From the NCBI GenBank assembly GCA_016933055.1, contig JAFGBS010000004.1, forward strand, positions 1 through 32,000: a stretch of 32,000 bases of DNA, read 5' to 3'. The DNA comes from Promethearchaeota archaeon. Lineage in GTDB: Archaea; Asgardarchaeota; Lokiarchaeia; Sigyniarchaeales; Promethearchaeaceae. This document shows, piece by piece, positions 2,775 to 13,990 of the stretch. A program made the translations under genes and the position numbers. The notes below the pieces were generated by a model. It was given only the letters and a program-made list of their open reading frames with translations. It did no database searches and was not told the DNA's origin. How positions within the stretch are numbered: position 1 is the stretch's first letter; each line of letters starts with the position of its first letter.

Positions 2775-3422
2775 TGTCTGTCCGCTGTTCACATCTAGTA
2801 CTTATAGGTACCGAGATTGTCTTCAATATTACGAAAAAATCAAGCACATAAGCAAAAAGTATCTTGAACACTTACACACAAACTCAATCAACACAAAAAG
2901 TGTAGGATGCTATATCCACCAGGACCAATTAGTCAGGGGGCACGTGTATCATGTAAACCTGACCCAGTTTTTTGAGGTCGTAAAAACGTTACAAGGTTTT
3001 GTTTCGTTTTTGGTTTTCTGATATTACATATTACAATGGGTTACACAAAGTACCATTACCTACAACCGACATTGGATGTTCCATTTGGAAGTATCCTATT
3101 ACGATGTAAGATGTTTGATGACATTCATCCACCAGTTGTGCACACAGTGATGGTACTATGTAACCGGCAAATCGCAAGATAGCAAGCAACATAGTTTGCA
3201 CATATGTACACAAATAATGGCTGATGTCGTTTAGATAACTTTACTTTTCTTTAAACGTTCAGCCCTACCCTATGAGGTAATCCATTCCGTGTTTCGGATG
3301 ATTGCCCGTTATTCAGTACCACATTCCTGCGGATCCGGATCCAGTAGAATCATGGTCATTTCCAGGCGCTTCTTGTGGGTGAATAATCACTATCATTCCG
3401 CTCCAAACGGGCTTGAGATGAT

Positions 3423-3635
3423 TCAATGTTTGGCAGGCAGGAATAACAGCCATGTTCCCGTGTCGGTGTCGTGATGATCGCTGCTGATCGCCAATCCGAT
3501 GATGGGGATCAGTGGCACAAAAGTCGACCGACAAATAGGCAATAAGGATCCCCACATTATAAATTTTATGCTGATAGAAGAGAAAACTACGGAAGGAGGG
3601 AATATCACCGGGAGATACGTCCAAAATTCAGCGTG
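3423..3635 (-). pseudogene. Possible decayed membrane-protein fragment (ABC-2-type permease-like)
   Basis: Stop-bounded hydrophobic frame HAEFWTYLPVIFPPSVVFSSISIKFIMWGSLLPICRSTFVPLIPIIGLAISSDHHDTDTGTWLLFLP. The end loosely resembles the 's.isgE...GT..lll..P' permease motif. No intact long ORF. Confidence 0.25.
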
Positions 3636-3851
3636 CCTATCTTATAAGGTTTGTGCATGTTGGGAAAAATGCGGAAGGCAATCTCGATTAGACACCCCTT
3701 AAGCACAACCATGCGGAGGAATACCATCTCATATCCCCGAATCGATCCAGAAGTCCATAACAAGAGCATGGAAGAAAAGAGGAATGCAATCAAATCGATT
3801 TATTGATAAATTAATAATTCTGTCGGGAAGAAAAGTGCTTTATGGTGCAAC

Positions 3852-4115
3852 CTATAACCTACTAAGTACCTTCTTCACATTTAACTGAAGATTCGGGATA
3901 TCCTCGATTATTTTTCCCAGACAATCTCAAGTTCAAGCGAGAAATACCCCAAGAACCATTCACCTTTGAAATGTCACAAGAATATTAATATCACTGTCTT
4001 TATTGAATTGATTAGTCAAAATCGAACTAAGTAATTCTGGTTTCTTTATGTAATATTTTTAGCAGATTTCTCTAAATTTCTCTTCATCCCCATGCTTAAT
4101 CAAAGCATTGAGTTT
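3852..4115 (-). pseudogene. Decayed MNT (minimal nucleotidyltransferase)-HEPN (DUF86-type) toxin-antitoxin relic
   Basis: Manual translation gives EKFREIC*KYYIKKPELLSSILTNQFNKDSDINILVTFQ (MNT GS..DSDID region, degenerate). It continues into GYFSLELEIVWEK / IIEDIPNLQLNVKKVL* (HEPN C-terminal HGY...IVWE...DIP motif), with a one-base loss in an A-run near 3911-3915. Confidence 0.65.
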
Positions 4116-5369: not shown

Positions 5370-5924
5370 ATGGTATCACGGGTCAAAATTATTAAAAACA
5401 TTGCAGAAACCTATGTCTCCGAAATCATATCCATTGCACTTGGTATAATCGCCGGTACCATACTTACAATCCTAATATTACCTTTTAATTCGTTTATTGT
5501 TTTAATCTTGATTATTCCTGGTTTATTATCGGTGAGAGGAAATACGGGAGGAAGTTTTGCTACAAGATCATCGCGAGATCTCATCATTGGTAATTTTAAT
5601 AAAAGAACATGGTTCGAAAATGTATCTGCCACGATAATTCTCTCATCAATTTCGGGGTTGTTACTGGGAATCTTGTCAGTTCTTCTAAATATAATTTTCT
5701 TGAAAATCGCGTTGATAGATTCAATTTCTCTATTTTTTCTCCCCCTCATCACATTAACAATTGAACAAATAGTTTCACTTCCTATATCAACACTTTTTAG
5801 TTATCTGGTTTTTAAATACGGGCTCGATCCAAACAATATTGTTAGTCCGATAATGACGGGTATTGACGATGTATTGATCATTCTTTGCTTCTATCTTTCA
5901 TTAAAACTTCTGGGGGTTCCATGA
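5370..5924 (+). CDS. mgtE: MgtE/SLC41-family divalent cation transporter, membrane domain only
   Basis: GNTGGSFATR and GLDPNNIVSPIMTGIDD motifs; about five TM helices. Confidence 0.85.
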   Translation: MVSRVKIIKNIAETYVSEIISIALGIIAGTILTILILPFNSFIVLILIIPGLLSVRGNTGGSFATRSSRDLIIGNFNKRTWFENVSATIILSSISGLLLGILSVLLNIIFLKIALIDSISLFFLPLITLTIEQIVSLPISTLFSYLVFKYGLDPNNIVSPIMTGIDDVLIILCFYLSLKLLGVP

Positions 5925-6478
5925 TTATGGATTATTTTAAAAAAATCATGAAAGAATCGATAATAGTTGTGATCTTAACGACGATAATAGGATTCATTAC
6001 GGGTTCATTTCTATCCAGCTATGAGGGTGTTTTAATATATATTCCCGTTATCTTGATTATTCTCCCCGCATTAGGAGACACAATTGGAGATTTAGCAACT
6101 GTCATAGTCTCAAGATTAACCACTAATCTCTATTTAGGTGAAATAGAGCCTAAAATACAAAACTCAAAAGTTTTGAAAACGGATTTTTTTAATTTATCGA
6201 TAACGATGGCATTATGCTGCATAACAATTCTTCTTATGGGGTATGGAATAGCATTTTTCACAAGTGTTCCTATTGTATATCCTTTCTTAATCATAGTTAT
6301 AGTTATGATAAGTGGATTGTTACTCTTTGCACTATTGTTTATTGTTTTAGTCGTTTCTTCGATATATCTTTTTAAAAGAGGACGTGATCCAAATAATTAT
6401 TTAGTTCCTATAGCAACCACCTTAGCGGATCTATTAACTCCAATTTCAGTTATTCTTTTGATCCAAATATTTATATGA
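5921..6478 (+). CDS. mgtE: Second MgtE/SLC41-family membrane-domain protein
   Basis: GDLATVIVSRLTT and GRDPNNYLVPIATTLAD motifs. The ATG at 5921 overlaps the upstream TGA (ATGA coupling), so it is preferred over the TTG at 5885. Confidence 0.85.
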   Translation: MIMDYFKKIMKESIIVVILTTIIGFITGSFLSSYEGVLIYIPVILIILPALGDTIGDLATVIVSRLTTNLYLGEIEPKIQNSKVLKTDFFNLSITMALCCITILLMGYGIAFFTSVPIVYPFLIIVIVMISGLLLFALLFIVLVVSSIYLFKRGRDPNNYLVPIATTLADLLTPISVILLIQIFI

Positions 6479-6517: not shown

Positions 6518-7762
6518 ATGAACGAAATCAGAAAGAAATTTGAATATATTCCAATATCCTTAAAAGACATTTTAAGGAGTATGAAACGAAATATTGACTT
6601 AATGATTGATCTTGCCTATAGTGCAGTAAAATTTGGAAGCGAAGAGATAGCAGATGAGACTTCTAGGATTGAACATCGAATCCATGACTTGACTTTCTTA
6701 TTATATTTACAAATCATTCAAACCCAAGTTGGTGGGATAAAAGAAGCGAAAAAATTAGAGCCAATTGTAGTTATGGGGTATTCAATAGATAAAATTTCTG
6801 ATGCGCTCGCAGATATTGCTAAAGTAGTTTATATTAACAGATATATCGGTGATTTCACTCAATTATTTTGGGATAAGGTACCAGAACCGATTGTAAAAGT
6901 AACTGTAAATGAAAATTGCAATTTTATTGGGCTCCCCCGACTTGAGGTCCATTTTCGTTCTAAATATGGAGTCGATTTAATAGCAATTAAGAGAGGAGAT
7001 CAATGGCTATTTGGATTTGATGAAACAATACATAAGGATGATATTTTAATCATTAAAGGAGAACTTGAGTTAATCTATGAATTAAAAACGCTTGTTTACG
7101 ATTTAGAACCAATTTCTTTCCGCCTTGATGAAGATAAGCGCGAAAATATTTTTGATTTATCCGATCCTGAAATATTTAAAGAACTTGAGGATTTGAAGAA
7201 TGATTATGTCAAAATCACTGACATCTCTGAGACAATGATTGAATTAGCATTAGCATCCCTTTTTTTCAATAGCTATGAGCTTGCTGAGGATATGTTAGAA
7301 ATGGAAGAGCTGATGGATGCCTTAAATGCAAAATTTGAAAAGGATCTTTTAGCTTTTGCAAATTTATCTAAAAATCCTCGAATTTTGACAGGTATAATGA
7401 AAATTATTTTCTCATGCGAACAAATCTCAGATGCTGCCTCGAGTATCGCTGAAAATATCGTAAAGGGCTTTGAACCTCATGAAATAGTCCAAAAAGCAAT
7501 TGAAGAAACTCCTGAAATTGTTGTACGGGAAACTGTCTCAAAAAAATCATTTTTTAATGGAAAAACGTATGCAGAATTACAAAATAACCGTTATAAAAAG
7601 GGATTTCATATAGTGGCAATGAAAAGAGAAAATAATTGGATATATGGATTTAAAAGAGAGTTTAAGTTTCAAGAAGGGGACCTATTAATTGGGTTAGGAC
7701 CAAAAGAAACCGTAGAACAATGGAGATATGGCGTACGTCCAGAAAACTCCAATGGAGATTAA
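6518..7762 (+). CDS. Tandem (PhoU-like + TrkA_C/RCK_C) x2 regulatory protein
   Basis: Two PhoU-like helical segments (MIDLAYSAV... / MIELALASLF...; EQISDAA), each followed by a TrkA_C motif (GVDLIAIKRGDQW...DDILI; GFHIVAMKRENNW...GDLLIGLG). Confidence 0.85.
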   Translation: MNEIRKKFEYIPISLKDILRSMKRNIDLMIDLAYSAVKFGSEEIADETSRIEHRIHDLTFLLYLQIIQTQVGGIKEAKKLEPIVVMGYSIDKISDALADIAKVVYINRYIGDFTQLFWDKVPEPIVKVTVNENCNFIGLPRLEVHFRSKYGVDLIAIKRGDQWLFGFDETIHKDDILIIKGELELIYELKTLVYDLEPISFRLDEDKRENIFDLSDPEIFKELEDLKNDYVKITDISETMIELALASLFFNSYELAEDMLEMEELMDALNAKFEKDLLAFANLSKNPRILTGIMKIIFSCEQISDAASSIAENIVKGFEPHEIVQKAIEETPEIVVRETVSKKSFFNGKTYAELQNNRYKKGFHIVAMKRENNWIYGFKREFKFQEGDLLIGLGPKETVEQWRYGVRPENSNGD

Positions 7763-8017
7763 AGCGTTTTAGTAGCAAGTGTTGCCTAGGTTGTTCGAAA
7801 TTGTTTTCTCTCCGCTTTATGTTCCTCTGTGTTTTAGGAAAATAATTGATTGAGTAATTAGAATCGATGAAGATGATGTTTTCGACTTTTATATGCCTAT
7901 AATCAAGTCAATTGCTGTACTATAGTATTATTCATTATAGTAATTTATTATGAGACAATGGATGAGATTCTGAAAAACAATCCATCAATTTTGTACTCAC
8001 ACCCCTTATTCTACGAA

Positions 8018-8068
8018 CTATGCTAAAAACCTATTTGGGATTAGGTCAAATAAGTTCTTTTAGCATAG
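8018..8068. repeat. Imperfect inverted repeat / hairpin (CTATGCT...AGCATAG)
   Basis: ctatgctaaaa (8018-8028) is perfectly complementary to ttttagcatag (8058-8068); inner tatttg/caaata pairing; 9-nt loop. Confidence 0.6.
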
Positions 8069-8536
8069 CTATTCCTAGTACTCATGAAATTTTATCTAAG
8101 GGTTATTATAAGTATTTCCAGTGGTATCCCATTTTGGAAACCTTAGTAGGTAGGATTGGACCGATAAAAAAAAAATATTATAGAACGAGCCTTAATGGGC
8201 GTGTATAATGCAGAATAGATATTATTTAATAAAGCAGAGTTACCCAATACACAGAGTAATCACTATTTCTCAATATATACTCATCAAAAAAATAACAGTT
8301 ACGTCCATTAGGCTTTCGTATGAAACACTTAAATGCATGTATAATTCGCTTTTCAATCCCCTGATCACTCATAATGAGGTATCGATCCAAACTACCTCTG
8401 GTGGGAAACCGAACGGAAACCCAAAAAACCCGACTCCTATAAGTTCAGATCAATTTCGTTCACTATGTAAAAGGAAGACCGCAACCGCAATTTTTAAATG
8501 GACTTCCGATCCAGTTAAGTGAAGAAGGTTATCAAT

Positions 8537-11215
8537 ATGAAGAAATTCCATCGAAAACTGACGATTATTGTATGTATTACCTATCTGGTCGGTATGGGAC
8601 TTTATCTGCCTTTTTATCCCGTAGCGGCCTATCCAACGTACCCCACCACGGGGATTATTGCAATGTGGACGGGGTCTGAATTACCCGAAGGATGGGAAAT
8701 AGTGACAGAAACAAATAGTCGATTTGTCATGGCTACTACTACGGGAGAGATTCCGGGAGCAACGGGCGGTGTTAGCAGCCATAGGCATGGATATACTCAG
8801 ATTCCGACTCATACGCATGGATACACTAATACGATTGGTGTGACTCATTCCCATTCGTATACCGGAGGAGGTTCGACCGCTAATAAAGGAACTGCGGGTT
8901 CTGATATTCGAACATTTTACACTGGTTCCCAATCCTCGATTGGGGGTTCGATTTCTGCCCATGTCCATACCGTGTATCCCACCGGTTATTCAACTTGCTA
9001 CACAGAGAGTAGTAGTCTATTACCACCATATCAAACGGTGACGTATATTAAGAAAGTGTCTGCTACAGCATTATATCCCGCAGGATTGATTGTAATCTCA
9101 ACCGGAGATTCAATACCATCTGGATGGGTTCGGTGTGATGGAAGTTCAGGTACGCCAGATTTACGGGGGGACTTTTTGATGGGTTCGCTTACTCCCGGAT
9201 CAATGGGGGGAACGACTTCACATAACCATGTGTACAGAGAAGTACCCTATCATTCACATACCATGCAAAGTGATGGTGGGAGTCATACCCATGGAGCCTA
9301 TCATAGCACAACTTATGTTAAGGCAGACGATTGGAGTACTTTTGCGTATGATGTGGTTGTAGCCACTTTAAGCCAATCTTCCACTTATCATCTCAGCCAC
9401 AGCCATTCGGTGCCATACATAGGAAGCTCTACTTGCTATACACAAACTGTATCTCATTTACCTCCATATATAGCGGTGGATTTTTTAATGAGTACTCAAG
9501 ACACATCAGCCTTGCCAGTTGGGGTAGTTGCATTATGGGACAGCGTAGATTCGTCAATTCCGTATGGATGGAATATGTGTGATGGTTCGTACGGAACCGC
9601 AGATTTTCGAAATAGATTTATTCGTGGAAGGAACACCGAACCCATCGGGAGTTTAGGAGGAAGTTCTGCGCATTCCCATTCCTATAGCACAGTACCCAGT
9701 CATACTCATTCCGTTAGTTCGGGAGATGCGTATCATGCTCATCAAATGTACGTATATGGGGGATTGACAGCGGGGGCAGAAACATTGCTCGGATTAGGTT
9801 CTAACGTGTATATTGAAGGGGGGTCAAGAACTACCACATCCTCAACCTATTCTCATCGACATTATATTAACTCAGCAGGAGTTTCAAATCCCAGTACGCA
9901 AACTGCTTCCAATTATCCTCCCTATGTGAAATTCACGTATATCCAGTGTATCGATTATGATGGGATTAGTCCTGTATTCAGCAGCACTCCCGCGGATAAA
10001 TCTTTGGAATATGGATATGCAAGTGAAAGCATTTCTTGGACGGCGATCGATGGGAATCCCAATACCTATAGTATTGATCTGCTTGGAACGGGTACGATAG
10101 TCTCACCAACACCATGGAATTCTGGTAATCCAATTACCTTTACTATTCCCGATGGATTTGGAGTGGGGTCGTATACTTATGTTATTGAACTCCTCGACAT
10201 GTATGGAAATCCAAGTACCGATAGTGTAACATTAACCGTAGAAGATACGACCAAACCGATTATTACGGAATACCCAATCCCGCTTACGGTTCAATTTGGT
10301 TATGATGGTCAATCTTATTCATGGACAGCCACCGATCTCAATGCCGATACTTATTCCATCGAACTCATCGGGACGGGTATTGTGGAAGAGCCCACAGCAT
10401 GGACATCTGACGCGCCGATAGTATACAATATACCCGAAGGCTTTGGAGTGGGGACTTATACCTATACCATTACTTTTCTCGATTTATATGGCAACTCTGA
10501 ATCTGATACGATCACGTTCAATGTGGAAGATACCACACACCCCATTATTCACACTATTCCGAGCGATCTCGTACTGGAATTTGGAGATACAGCACCAGTA
10601 TTACTGTGGAATGCAACGGATCCGTATCCGGGGGTATATAATATTACAATCGACGATGTCCTGTATGCAATTAATTATCCATGGATCTCTGGGTCTCCAA
10701 TAGAATTTGATATAGATCCCTTTTATCTCGACGTAAATACCTACACTCTCACAATCACTGTATCAGATCTTTATGGTAACTACGCTTCAGATAGTGTTTC
10801 TATCACTATACAGGACACTACCACCCCGGTAATCACTGATACACCTTTTGATATTGCTGCAGATCTTGGGTACACTAACCGAAAAGTGACTTGGACGGCA
10901 ACGGATTATTTACCAGATACCTACACCATTGAGTTAGGGGGAACAGGAATAGTAGTAGATCATATTAAATGGACTTCTGGAGAACCCGTGACCTATACTT
11001 TTCCAGATGGGTTCGCATCGGGAACATATACTTATACTATCACGTTTTATGATGAACAAGGGAATTCAGTCACAGATAGAGTCCTCTTTATTGTCAGAGA
11101 ACTTCCGCCAAGGACGATTCCCGGATTCAATTTCCCCTTCTTAATAATAATCTCCATTAGTTCAGTGATTATGCTGGTTTTAGTTCAAAAACACAAAAAG
11201 AATAGGGCGAAATAA
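8537..11215 (+). CDS. Cell-surface protein: signal peptide + 3 phage tail-collar/HxH fibre repeats + 4 Ig-like repeats + Loki-CTERM-type anchor
   Basis: Signal peptide ending VAA. Three ~146-aa repeats with collar motifs (P.Gii.w....P.GW..CDG..GTPDLRG.F) and PPY end motifs. Four repeats at a 95-aa period (DTT.P.I...WTATD...Y.I...D.YGN). C-terminal IPGF + TM helix + KHKKNRAK. ATG 8537 preferred over GTG 8519. Confidence 0.9.
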   Translation: MKKFHRKLTIIVCITYLVGMGLYLPFYPVAAYPTYPTTGIIAMWTGSELPEGWEIVTETNSRFVMATTTGEIPGATGGVSSHRHGYTQIPTHTHGYTNTIGVTHSHSYTGGGSTANKGTAGSDIRTFYTGSQSSIGGSISAHVHTVYPTGYSTCYTESSSLLPPYQTVTYIKKVSATALYPAGLIVISTGDSIPSGWVRCDGSSGTPDLRGDFLMGSLTPGSMGGTTSHNHVYREVPYHSHTMQSDGGSHTHGAYHSTTYVKADDWSTFAYDVVVATLSQSSTYHLSHSHSVPYIGSSTCYTQTVSHLPPYIAVDFLMSTQDTSALPVGVVALWDSVDSSIPYGWNMCDGSYGTADFRNRFIRGRNTEPIGSLGGSSAHSHSYSTVPSHTHSVSSGDAYHAHQMYVYGGLTAGAETLLGLGSNVYIEGGSRTTTSSTYSHRHYINSAGVSNPSTQTASNYPPYVKFTYIQCIDYDGISPVFSSTPADKSLEYGYASESISWTAIDGNPNTYSIDLLGTGTIVSPTPWNSGNPITFTIPDGFGVGSYTYVIELLDMYGNPSTDSVTLTVEDTTKPIITEYPIPLTVQFGYDGQSYSWTATDLNADTYSIELIGTGIVEEPTAWTSDAPIVYNIPEGFGVGTYTYTITFLDLYGNSESDTITFNVEDTTHPIIHTIPSDLVLEFGDTAPVLLWNATDPYPGVYNITIDDVLYAINYPWISGSPIEFDIDPFYLDVNTYTLTITVSDLYGNYASDSVSITIQDTTTPVITDTPFDIAADLGYTNRKVTWTATDYLPDTYTIELGGTGIVVDHIKWTSGEPVTYTFPDGFASGTYTYTITFYDEQGNSVTDRVLFIVRELPPRTIPGFNFPFLIIISISSVIMLVLVQKHKKNRAK

Positions 11216-13294: not shown

Positions 13295-13990
13295 TTATTG
13301 GGTGCAACCATCCGCATCGGGACATGTGCAGCAAATTGTTTTATTGTAGGTAGTGGACAAATATTCGTAGATCGCCTTTGCAGCGGGAGATGAATACAAG
13401 TACGGACACACGACAGTATTTTTCATCTCTAGCATGAAATGAAGGTGAGAGTATTCTTCTCCCGTGCATAGCAAGCGTGCAATCCGATCACCCTTAGTTA
13501 TTTCCTGTCCTTTTATGACATAAATATTATCCCGCTGCAATTGGTTTTCGTGTTCGGTAGTCGCCATTGGTTCAATTACATATTTCACTGTCCAACCACG
13601 TGCGATGGTTACATATACATTGAACATGATTTTTCCTCCAGCATACGTATTTCCAGATTCCTCTATTTTTGTGACTGTTCCATCCGCTACAGCGAGAATT
13701 CCCGTCCAATTATTTGGATTTATTGGAAAGTCAATTCCATTGTGGTAAACTCCGGGTTCTCCCCAATTACTTATATTGAATCCGTTAAAATCTGTTAGAT
13801 TGAGTGCGTCCCCCTCCATAGGAAATTCGATTGGGGGACATTCTTCTGTCAATAGATAGAGGGGACTTTTTGGATAAAGAAAAATAAAACCCGCAATCCC
13901 TATGATAATGATACTTATGAATGTGATGAAAATTTTTGGTCCTTGTTTCATAGGAGTTAATCGGTACTTGGTCAATTTAGATTTATTCAT
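13295..13990 (-). CDS. Membrane-anchored M23-family zinc metallopeptidase
   Basis: N-terminal TM helix, HNGID (HxxxD), AVADGTV, V.KGQ.I.KGD.IA and HLHF (HxH). Confidence 0.85.
   Translation of the reverse strand: MNKSKLTKYRLTPMKQGPKIFITFISIIIIGIAGFIFLYPKSPLYLLTEECPPIEFPMEGDALNLTDFNGFNISNWGEPGVYHNGIDFPINPNNWTGILAVADGTVTKIEESGNTYAGGKIMFNVYVTIARGWTVKYVIEPMATTEHENQLQRDNIYVIKGQEITKGDRIARLLCTGEEYSHLHFMLEMKNTVVCPYLYSSPAAKAIYEYLSTTYNKTICCTCPDADGCTQ

Follow-up and report, generated by a model that had tools for sequence, protein, structure and literature searches.

A candidate single-chain, pseudo-trimeric form of the phage HxH fibre tip on a predicted surface protein of a Promethearchaeota archaeon

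It is customary to regard the receptor-binding tip of a phage fibre as a homotrimer, a state that forces threefold-symmetric binding surfaces upon it. A gene on contig JAFGBS010000004.1 of a Promethearchaeota archaeon (assembly GCA_016933055.1) raises the question whether one polypeptide can build such a tip by itself. The gene lies at 8519..11215 on the plus strand of the 32,000-nucleotide stretch that we analysed (positions 1 to 32,000 of the contig, hereafter the window). It encodes a protein of 898 amino acids with three tandem copies of a fibre-tip repeat, each carrying histidine-x-histidine (HxH) motifs. Our preferred explanation, to which we assign a probability of about 0.72, is that this protein is an adhesin on the cell surface, with a single-chain, pseudo-trimeric, HxH-stapled version of the phage fibre tip at its end.

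The repeats are 145-147 amino acids long and 32-34% identical to each other, with 26 invariant columns in their alignment. Repeat 1 (amino acids 42-186; 8642..9076, plus strand) has its HxH motifs at residues 88, 98, 110 and 148, repeat 2 (amino acids 187-332; 9077..9514, plus strand) at 235, 245, 256 and 294, and repeat 3 (amino acids 333-479; 9515..9955, plus strand) at 385, 395, 406 and 446. They read HRH/HTH/HSH/HVH with a spacing of 10/12/38 in the first repeat, HNH/HSH/HTH/HSH with 10/11/38 in the second and HSH/HTH/HAH/HRH with 10/11/40 in the third, and the motif PPY ends each of the three. An earlier inspection of the letters and their translations (the sequence-only reading) had already listed the three starts, the end at 9955, the four HxH per repeat in the same register and the closing PPY; the coordinates proved exact and the motifs read as listed. 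The 438-amino-acid module thus holds 12 HxH, far beyond chance, since 20,000 shuffles gave 1.6 on average and never more than 9, and 24 of its 27 histidines fall within these motifs. Across 30 homologous modules of 26-74% identity each of the 12 motifs is invariant or at least 90% conserved. The least conserved segments (amino acids 120-140, 260-290 and 410-440) are the hairpins between the third and fourth HxH, a pattern consistent with a variable or asymmetric binding apex and with the earlier suggestion that divergent loops would permit an asymmetric tip.

At the head of the repeats stands a motif of the tail-collar type. Its full form, P.G.I..W.G..IP.GW..CDG..GTPDLR..F, is present in repeats 2 and 3; in repeat 1 it is degenerate, with P.G.I..W and P.GW kept and CDG..GTPDLR lost. 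This head, which had been recognised beforehand together with the missing CDG part of repeat 1, is real, though weak in Pfam: PF07484 (phage tail collar) scored the whole protein at 24.0 bits with a cut-off of 24, through one stretch in repeat 2 that covers only positions 1-22 of the 57 in the profile. When the repeats were scanned singly, repeat 2 reached 19.2 bits and repeats 1 and 3 gave no match. Many homologues have a precomputed PF07484 match, and no NCBIfam family matches the repeats.

A profile of the module searched against the PDB matched fibre chains only, namely the Photorhabdus virulence cassette (PVC) tail fibre (9qgo; expect value E 3.2e-14), gp60 of Pseudomonas phage Pa223 (9nxk; E 7.5e-12), the receptor-binding protein of the JUB59 prophage (6ov6; E 1.2e-9, over the whole repeat) and, weakly, T4 gp12. 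These matches bear out the homology to HxH metal-stapled homotrimeric fibre tips that the sequence-only reading had proposed. Exhaustive structural alignment of our model of the module with 48,161 PDB representatives gave a Z score of 2 or more for only eight chains, all from phage or PVC fibres (6ov6, 9nxk, 8on5, gp12 twice, the gp37 needle, a cyanophage fibre and gp10). Most of the eight align to a single repeat, and repeat 3 is the one matched to single chains of trimeric tips. Wherever a relative of one repeat has been solved, it is a homotrimer, and each of its chains has a single repeat.

The best structural match to one repeat is the JUB59 receptor-binding protein, from a Bizionia argentinensis prophage ('C24 protein'; Z 4.7 over 127 residues, 22% identity). 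It shares a collar-like central domain and a needle tip whose histidine pairs are reported to bind Fe2+ (PMC9509320); in T4 and JUB59 alike these pairs stabilise the fibre (PMC9509320). It differs in that one-repeat chains form a homotrimer at the C-terminus of a phage protein, whereas here three diverged repeats stand in one chain, at the N-terminus of what appears to be a membrane-anchored cellular protein. The strongest sequence relatives with solved structures are Pa223 gp60 (9nxk) and the PVC tail fibre (9qgo, 8on5), both again homotrimers of one-repeat chains; in the case of Pa223 gp60 the three subunits are reported to be identical and the tip to resemble that of gp37 (bioRxiv 10.1101/2025.06.11.659172). 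The T4 gp37 needle (2xgf) and the gp12 tip (1ocy, 5iv5) share with the module the HxH on extended strands, the collar domain and the metal-stapled trimer axis (Z 3.7), but they are virion homotrimers of marginal sequence similarity. The gp37 needle has seven iron sites and gp12 one zinc site; the Asgard module would have four levels.

If three repeats replace three chains, their number should be telling, and we counted repeats in homologues. A one-repeat profile searched against 1.84 billion representatives gave 23,173 matches at E ≤0.001 and 569 at ≤1e-30. The count was made on 200 fetched proteins out of the 150 best-scoring representatives and 56 word-indexed matches; pieces were merged by their position in the model, and only those covering at least 75% of the model were taken as full repeats. 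These two rules also counter the suspicion that three stretches per protein are an artefact of hit splitting by the hidden Markov model. Three full repeats were found in 152 proteins, six in three and nine in one, while none of the 200 had four, seven or eight. The absence of these numbers is meaningful because proteins with more repeats would score higher and be listed. The nine-repeat protein (2022 amino acids; L005 10001-16069) consists of three contiguous triplets with spacers of about 140 amino acids, and is encoded on a phage contig, a JGI metagenome contig with SU10_MCP capsid and holin genes.

Homologues with two, four or five repeats had been named in the sequence-only reading as a reason to doubt a pseudo-trimer, and the outcome favours it. 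The only protein with five full repeats has a partial sixth. Two full repeats occur in 25 proteins, about half of them with a partial third, and we inspected five loci of this kind. In four (L009, L010, L012 and L013) the two-repeat gene adjoins a gene for one further repeat, whose HxH agree in count and position, in a 1+2 or 2+1 arrangement. The two genes span 3440-3994 and 4001-4840 in L010, which belongs to the tail cluster of a siphophage, and 3001-3840 and 3851-4276 in L013. At the fifth locus (L011) the break falls within repeat 1 of what is a three-repeat gene. The downstream neighbour of one two-repeat protein (P0177) is an unannotated gene of 193 amino acids. An arrangement with three separate genes was found in Caudoviricetes sp. 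vir515 (BK063672.1, host Methanosarcinales; L004 3117-5220), where the tape-measure region is directly followed by three adjacent paralogous 'tail protein' genes of 234, 235 and 230 amino acids; each has a single collar/HxH repeat with two HxH, and the trio is a candidate 1+1+1 heterotrimeric fibre tip of an archaeal virus. In every locus examined (1+1+1, 1+2, 2+1, 3, 6, 9) the repeats add up to three or a multiple of it, a sign that three repeats fold together as one pseudo-trimer.

The register of the HxH motifs points the same way. In any one protein the three repeats agree in how many motifs they have and how these are spaced, and from one subfamily to another both features vary. Among the classes are 10/11-12/35-41 (the Asgard group), 10/9, 7/7/28, 12/42 and 15/36, a class of five HxH with 12/12/40/12 and one of seven HxH with about 10/11/10/26/10/11. 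Counts of HxH were equal within 80 of 145 clean triplets, compared with 24 on average and 41 at most in 5,000 shuffles that ignore relatedness. Trees of the repeats, built by quick search from about 150 columns, group them within a subfamily according to their position in the protein; every register class comes out as a separate clade with repeats 1, 2 and 3 in it. Either triplication took place several times independently or the copies evolved in concert, and under both there would be selection for three matched blades. We considered whether equal HxH counts reflect mere recent duplication and rejected this, as the repeats have diverged to 32-34% identity and cluster by position across two Asgard subfamilies; for the same reasons the triplication must be old. 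Common ancestry at the triplication still accounts for part of the register match. In bacteria and phages, decay has left some triplets with 4,3,3 HxH, an asymmetry that is possible only with blades of different sequence.

Fold predictions agree with a single unit. An AlphaFold2 model of amino acids 40-484 as a monomer (30 sequences) reached a mean predicted local distance difference test score (pLDDT) of 82.2 and a predicted template modelling score (pTM) of 0.72, with the collar parts above pLDDT 90. Repeat 2 modelled alone from an equally deep alignment (28 sequences) reached only pLDDT 59.8 and pTM 0.36, and its HxH region 45-51, versus mostly 81-94 (68 around the third HxH) in the full chain; the repeats therefore do not appear to be independent domains. 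Models predicted independently of ours share its overall shape: ones that match the whole module were found for Pas29 and Pas28 of Actinoplanes phage phiAsp2 (template modelling (TM) score by query 0.54; E 9e-18 and 8e-17), and a 309-amino-acid viral cluster of the ESM Atlas matches residues 7-428 (TM 0.55 by query, 0.76 by hit).

In the explanation that we prefer, the three diverged tandem repeats of one chain would fold together around a pseudo-threefold axis, taking the place of three identical phage chains. Each of the four HxH levels would supply six histidines, two per repeat, to one metal ion and so staple the needle, and by likeness to T4 gp37, gp12 and the JUB59 receptor-binding protein the predicted metal would be Fe2+ or Zn2+. 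The hairpins between the third and fourth HxH would form the apex that contacts the ligand, and this apex can be asymmetric because the three blades have different sequences. Four immunoglobulin (Ig)-like domains would hold the tip away from the membrane, to which a Loki-CTERM signal would anchor the protein. Packing of the three repeats within the chain has strong comparative support. The putative role in adhesion or ligand binding follows from the likeness to receptor-binding tips, and attachment to partner cells, which the sequence-only reading had raised, is speculation.

Several points weigh against this explanation. Of the pseudo-trimer proposed beforehand, the part that makes the three repeats one structural unit was upheld by the census, the split gene pairs, the matched registers and the context-dependent fold confidence; the pseudo-threefold packing, the convergence of the histidines and their geometry around a metal we infer rather than see directly. 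The needle hairpins between the third and fourth HxH are the low-confidence parts of the model (pLDDT 52-68). The structural Z scores, at most 4.7, are weak taken singly and count only jointly with the sequence matches. Foldseek of the model against the PDB gave nothing at E ≤0.001 and 6ov6 only at E 0.2; we did not adopt a new fold on this account, as a null result is expected for one chain of an intertwined trimer. The census sampled the family rather than covering the whole of it, and the tests of HxH counts and repeat trees have the bounds given with them above. When the three repeats were modelled as separate chains together with four Fe, the result was graded as weak support only, at an interface score (ipSAE) of 0.52 versus 0.19 for the best control. 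The runs agreed in at least 86% of contacts, with partner pLDDT of at least 73. The mark that this complex test requires is reached by 58 of 80 solved complexes and by 2 of 110 mismatched pairs, and at ipSAE ≤0.60 by seven of the 80 solved complexes and by both of the mismatches that pass; these calibration counts hold only roughly here, as our test used its own alignments and a riding ligand. The pass may also stem from likeness to solved homotrimers. Finally, every solved relative being a homotrimer, further trimerisation of the whole protein is conceivable.

The last point leads to the alternative that survives best, a stacked homotrimer in which repeat 1 of three chains would come together, and likewise repeats 2 and 3, so that three successive trimeric knobs sit on one axis. 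Phage fibres often stack repeated domains along their trimer axis, and the solved relatives are all homotrimers. We nevertheless consider it unlikely. It gives no reason why homologues have three, six or nine repeats and never four, seven or eight, and it leaves unexplained both the two-repeat genes that stand beside a one-repeat gene of the same register and the match of HxH register between the repeats of one protein. As a unit, the monomer is modelled with confidence already (pTM 0.72), and the protein has an Ig-like stalk and a single C-terminal anchor, with no trimerisation element detected in the domain scans. Metal stoichiometry does not discriminate between the two, as four metals per chain are expected under the pseudo-trimer and the stacked homotrimer alike.

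We give still less credit to a string of independent globular binding domains, in the manner of tandem-repeat lectins, in which the HxH would have a role within each domain. Such lectins are common, and divergence to 32-34% identity would suit them. What speaks against independent domains is the behaviour of repeat 2, poor when modelled alone (pLDDT 59.8, pTM 0.36, HxH region 45-51) and good within the three-repeat chain, and the nature of the homologous chains of known structure: these are extended protomers, found only intertwined in a trimer. The rule of three is a further argument against such domains, and so are the split genes.

The pseudo-trimeric tip that we favour forms only part of the protein, and the order of its domains tells how it might be displayed. 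From the GTG start at 8519, the translation begins with a basic stretch and a hydrophobic segment, a presumed signal peptide (about amino acids 7-41; 8537..8641, plus strand), and the fibre-tip module begins directly after it. A database twin (P0002) is 100% identical over its 892 amino acids and starts at the ATG at 8537. The module is followed by a stalk of four Ig-like repeats (Big_13, PKD-like; 9959..11098, plus strand), on which PF19077 (Big_13) scored 46.7 bits with the whole protein and 52.3 bits with amino acids 480-870, in three stretches and with a cut-off of 27. The protein ends with a sorting and anchor signal of the Loki-CTERM type, consisting of IPGF, a transmembrane helix and a basic tail (11117..11215, plus strand). 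The corresponding model, NF033507, matched amino acids 850-898 with 21.4 bits and, in a genome scan, 11117-11197 with 20.6 bits, both above the cut-off of 19.9; the match is borderline, as it falls to 15.5 bits if the whole protein is scanned. The same signal is present on 10 other open reading frame (ORF) ends of this genome, which is 91% complete and in which no exosortase/archaeosortase (PF09721) was found. The best explanation of this domain order would be a secreted cell-surface protein anchored at its C-terminus, with the fibre tip at the distal N-terminal end. It is this packaging, an N-terminal tip with an Ig stalk and a Loki-CTERM anchor, that appears peculiar to the Asgard copy.

An ORF of 104 amino acids with odd composition (8208-8522) overlaps the GTG start by 4 nucleotides; it is probably not a gene, and it spans the likely promoter and 5′ region of the adhesin gene.

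The genes around the adhesin gene are cellular: MgtE, PhoU/TrkA-C, GNAT, MFS, M23 peptidase, amine oxidase, FGGY kinase and OMPdecase/RraA. No virion, integrase or terminase gene was found among the ten flanking ORFs scanned (about 4.3-19.4 kb). The same downstream set (GNAT, MFS, M23, amine oxidase, FGGY, OMPdecase/RraA) accompanies an orthologue of 64% identity in another Promethearchaeota metagenome-assembled genome (MAG), and a homologue from Hodarchaeota sits among metabolic genes. Among named homologues, the nearest belong to MAGs of Promethearchaeota and Hodarchaeota. Neighbours and synteny thus confirm the cellular setting without nearby phage genes that had been described beforehand, and the gene content points to a surface-displayed protein encoded by the host itself rather than by a provirus. 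The GC content is 0.42 over the repeat module (8001-10000), against 0.32 just upstream and 0.38-0.40 downstream, which could come from the Gly/Ser/Thr/His-rich composition of the module or from a foreign origin.

Upstream, two slightly overlapping ORFs (184 and 197 amino acids) at 5370-6478 each hold one MgtE domain and are followed by the PhoU/TrkA-C protein at 6518-7762. The M23 peptidase homologue lies at 13295-13990 on the minus strand (38.2 bits), and is conserved beside the neighbours of the adhesin gene in the orthologous locus (L007). An archaeal large-subunit ribosomal RNA gene occupies 1-2717 of the window on the minus strand (2261 bits) and is cut by the window start.

Of all the alternatives the least credible is that the gene encodes the tail fibre of an Asgard virus, integrated or degraded, and not a host surface protein, a view for which one might cite the phage-type module with its occurrence in real phage tail clusters, the patchy distribution in the phylum (3 of 201 genomes) and the GC content of 0.42 at 8-10 kb versus 0.32-0.38 in the flanks, and which is contradicted by the ten scanned flanking ORFs, free of virion, integrase and terminase genes, by downstream neighbours shared with the 64%-identical orthologue, and by a protein that has a presumed signal peptide, an Ig stalk and the Loki-CTERM signal of the host itself.

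The sequence-only reading had asked for the threefold architecture in other Asgard genomes; a scan of 201 genomes sampled from the phylum, the genome of this archaeon included, found it in no more than 3, and such rarity argues for an accessory, probably horizontally acquired trait rather than a core feature. The genome itself holds a paralogue of 547 amino acids (G000:C6:417624-418607; L002 1342..2985, minus strand), with a signal peptide, three repeats and a transmembrane anchor with a basic tail, and with no Ig stalk. Its HxH number 3,3,3, at positions 54/64/73, 54/64/73 and 53/63/72 of the repeats, and the repeat tree joins each of its three repeats to one of a representative protein (P0098) at branch lengths of at most 0.16.

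The single-chain triplet is not confined to the Asgard archaea. It was found in at least 150 representative clusters, and proteins with three and with nine repeats are encoded on metagenomic phage contigs. One phage case is that of phiAsp2 (NC_005885.1; L003 3802-10520), whose adjacent tail genes pas28 and pas29 have one triplet each, with HxH 4,4,4; the annotation of the record (NC_005885.1) says only that a possible receptor-recognising protein has HXHY motifs. Pas28 and Pas29 thus resemble the archaeal protein in having exactly three repeats with 4,4,4 HxH in a single chain, and in models that match the whole module. They differ in being products of genuine phage tail genes, in their register (7/7/30 versus 10/11/38 in the Asgard module), and in that the module is internal to proteins of 936-1291 amino acids with no Ig stalk and no membrane anchor. 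Fibre tips of this HxH class normally belong to a phage or tailocin tail gene cluster, and the Asgard gene is not so placed. Bacterial homologues with type IX secretion system (T9SS) sorting domains were also found, as was one homologue from Thermoplasmata with a beta-helix. The only name given to members of the clusters was 'microcystin-dependent protein', for 2 of the 10 proteins looked up. The single-chain triplet is therefore not an Asgard invention, nor is it peculiar to this one genome or to domesticated forms, and it appears to be widespread in phages too.

Oligomer subunits that became fused in a single chain, their copies then diverging and free to lose symmetry, are familiar from beta-trefoil lectins, beta-prisms and double-jelly-roll capsid proteins. 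These follow the same evolutionary logic with unrelated folds, and none of them is a metal-stapled fibre tip. In the searchable literature we found no description of a single-chain or pseudo-trimeric fibre-tip architecture. The loci with 1+1+1, 1+2, 2+1, 3, 6 and 9 repeats look like stages on the way from an oligomer to a fused pseudo-oligomer. On balance we lean towards a general picture in which metal-stapled tips were repeatedly turned from homotrimers into hetero- or pseudo-trimers (from 1+1+1 to 1+2 or 2+1, then to 3, and to 6 and 9), making up an undescribed and widespread class of asymmetric receptor-binding modules in phages that Asgard archaea and other prokaryotes took over as anchored adhesin tips.

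A tip built from a single chain, or from 1+2 or 1+1+1 chains, would lift the constraint of threefold symmetry. If this is true, it would give phages and cells an asymmetric tip without the assembly of a trimer, and offer a compact scaffold for the engineering of binding specificity. For the biology of the Asgard archaea, what the locus suggests is a virus-derived module, probably acquired horizontally, that would be shown on an Ig stalk by means of the lineage's own sorting signal. The partner interactions of these archaea draw wide interest, and the module is a concrete candidate for a means of contact between their cells and other cells or substrates.

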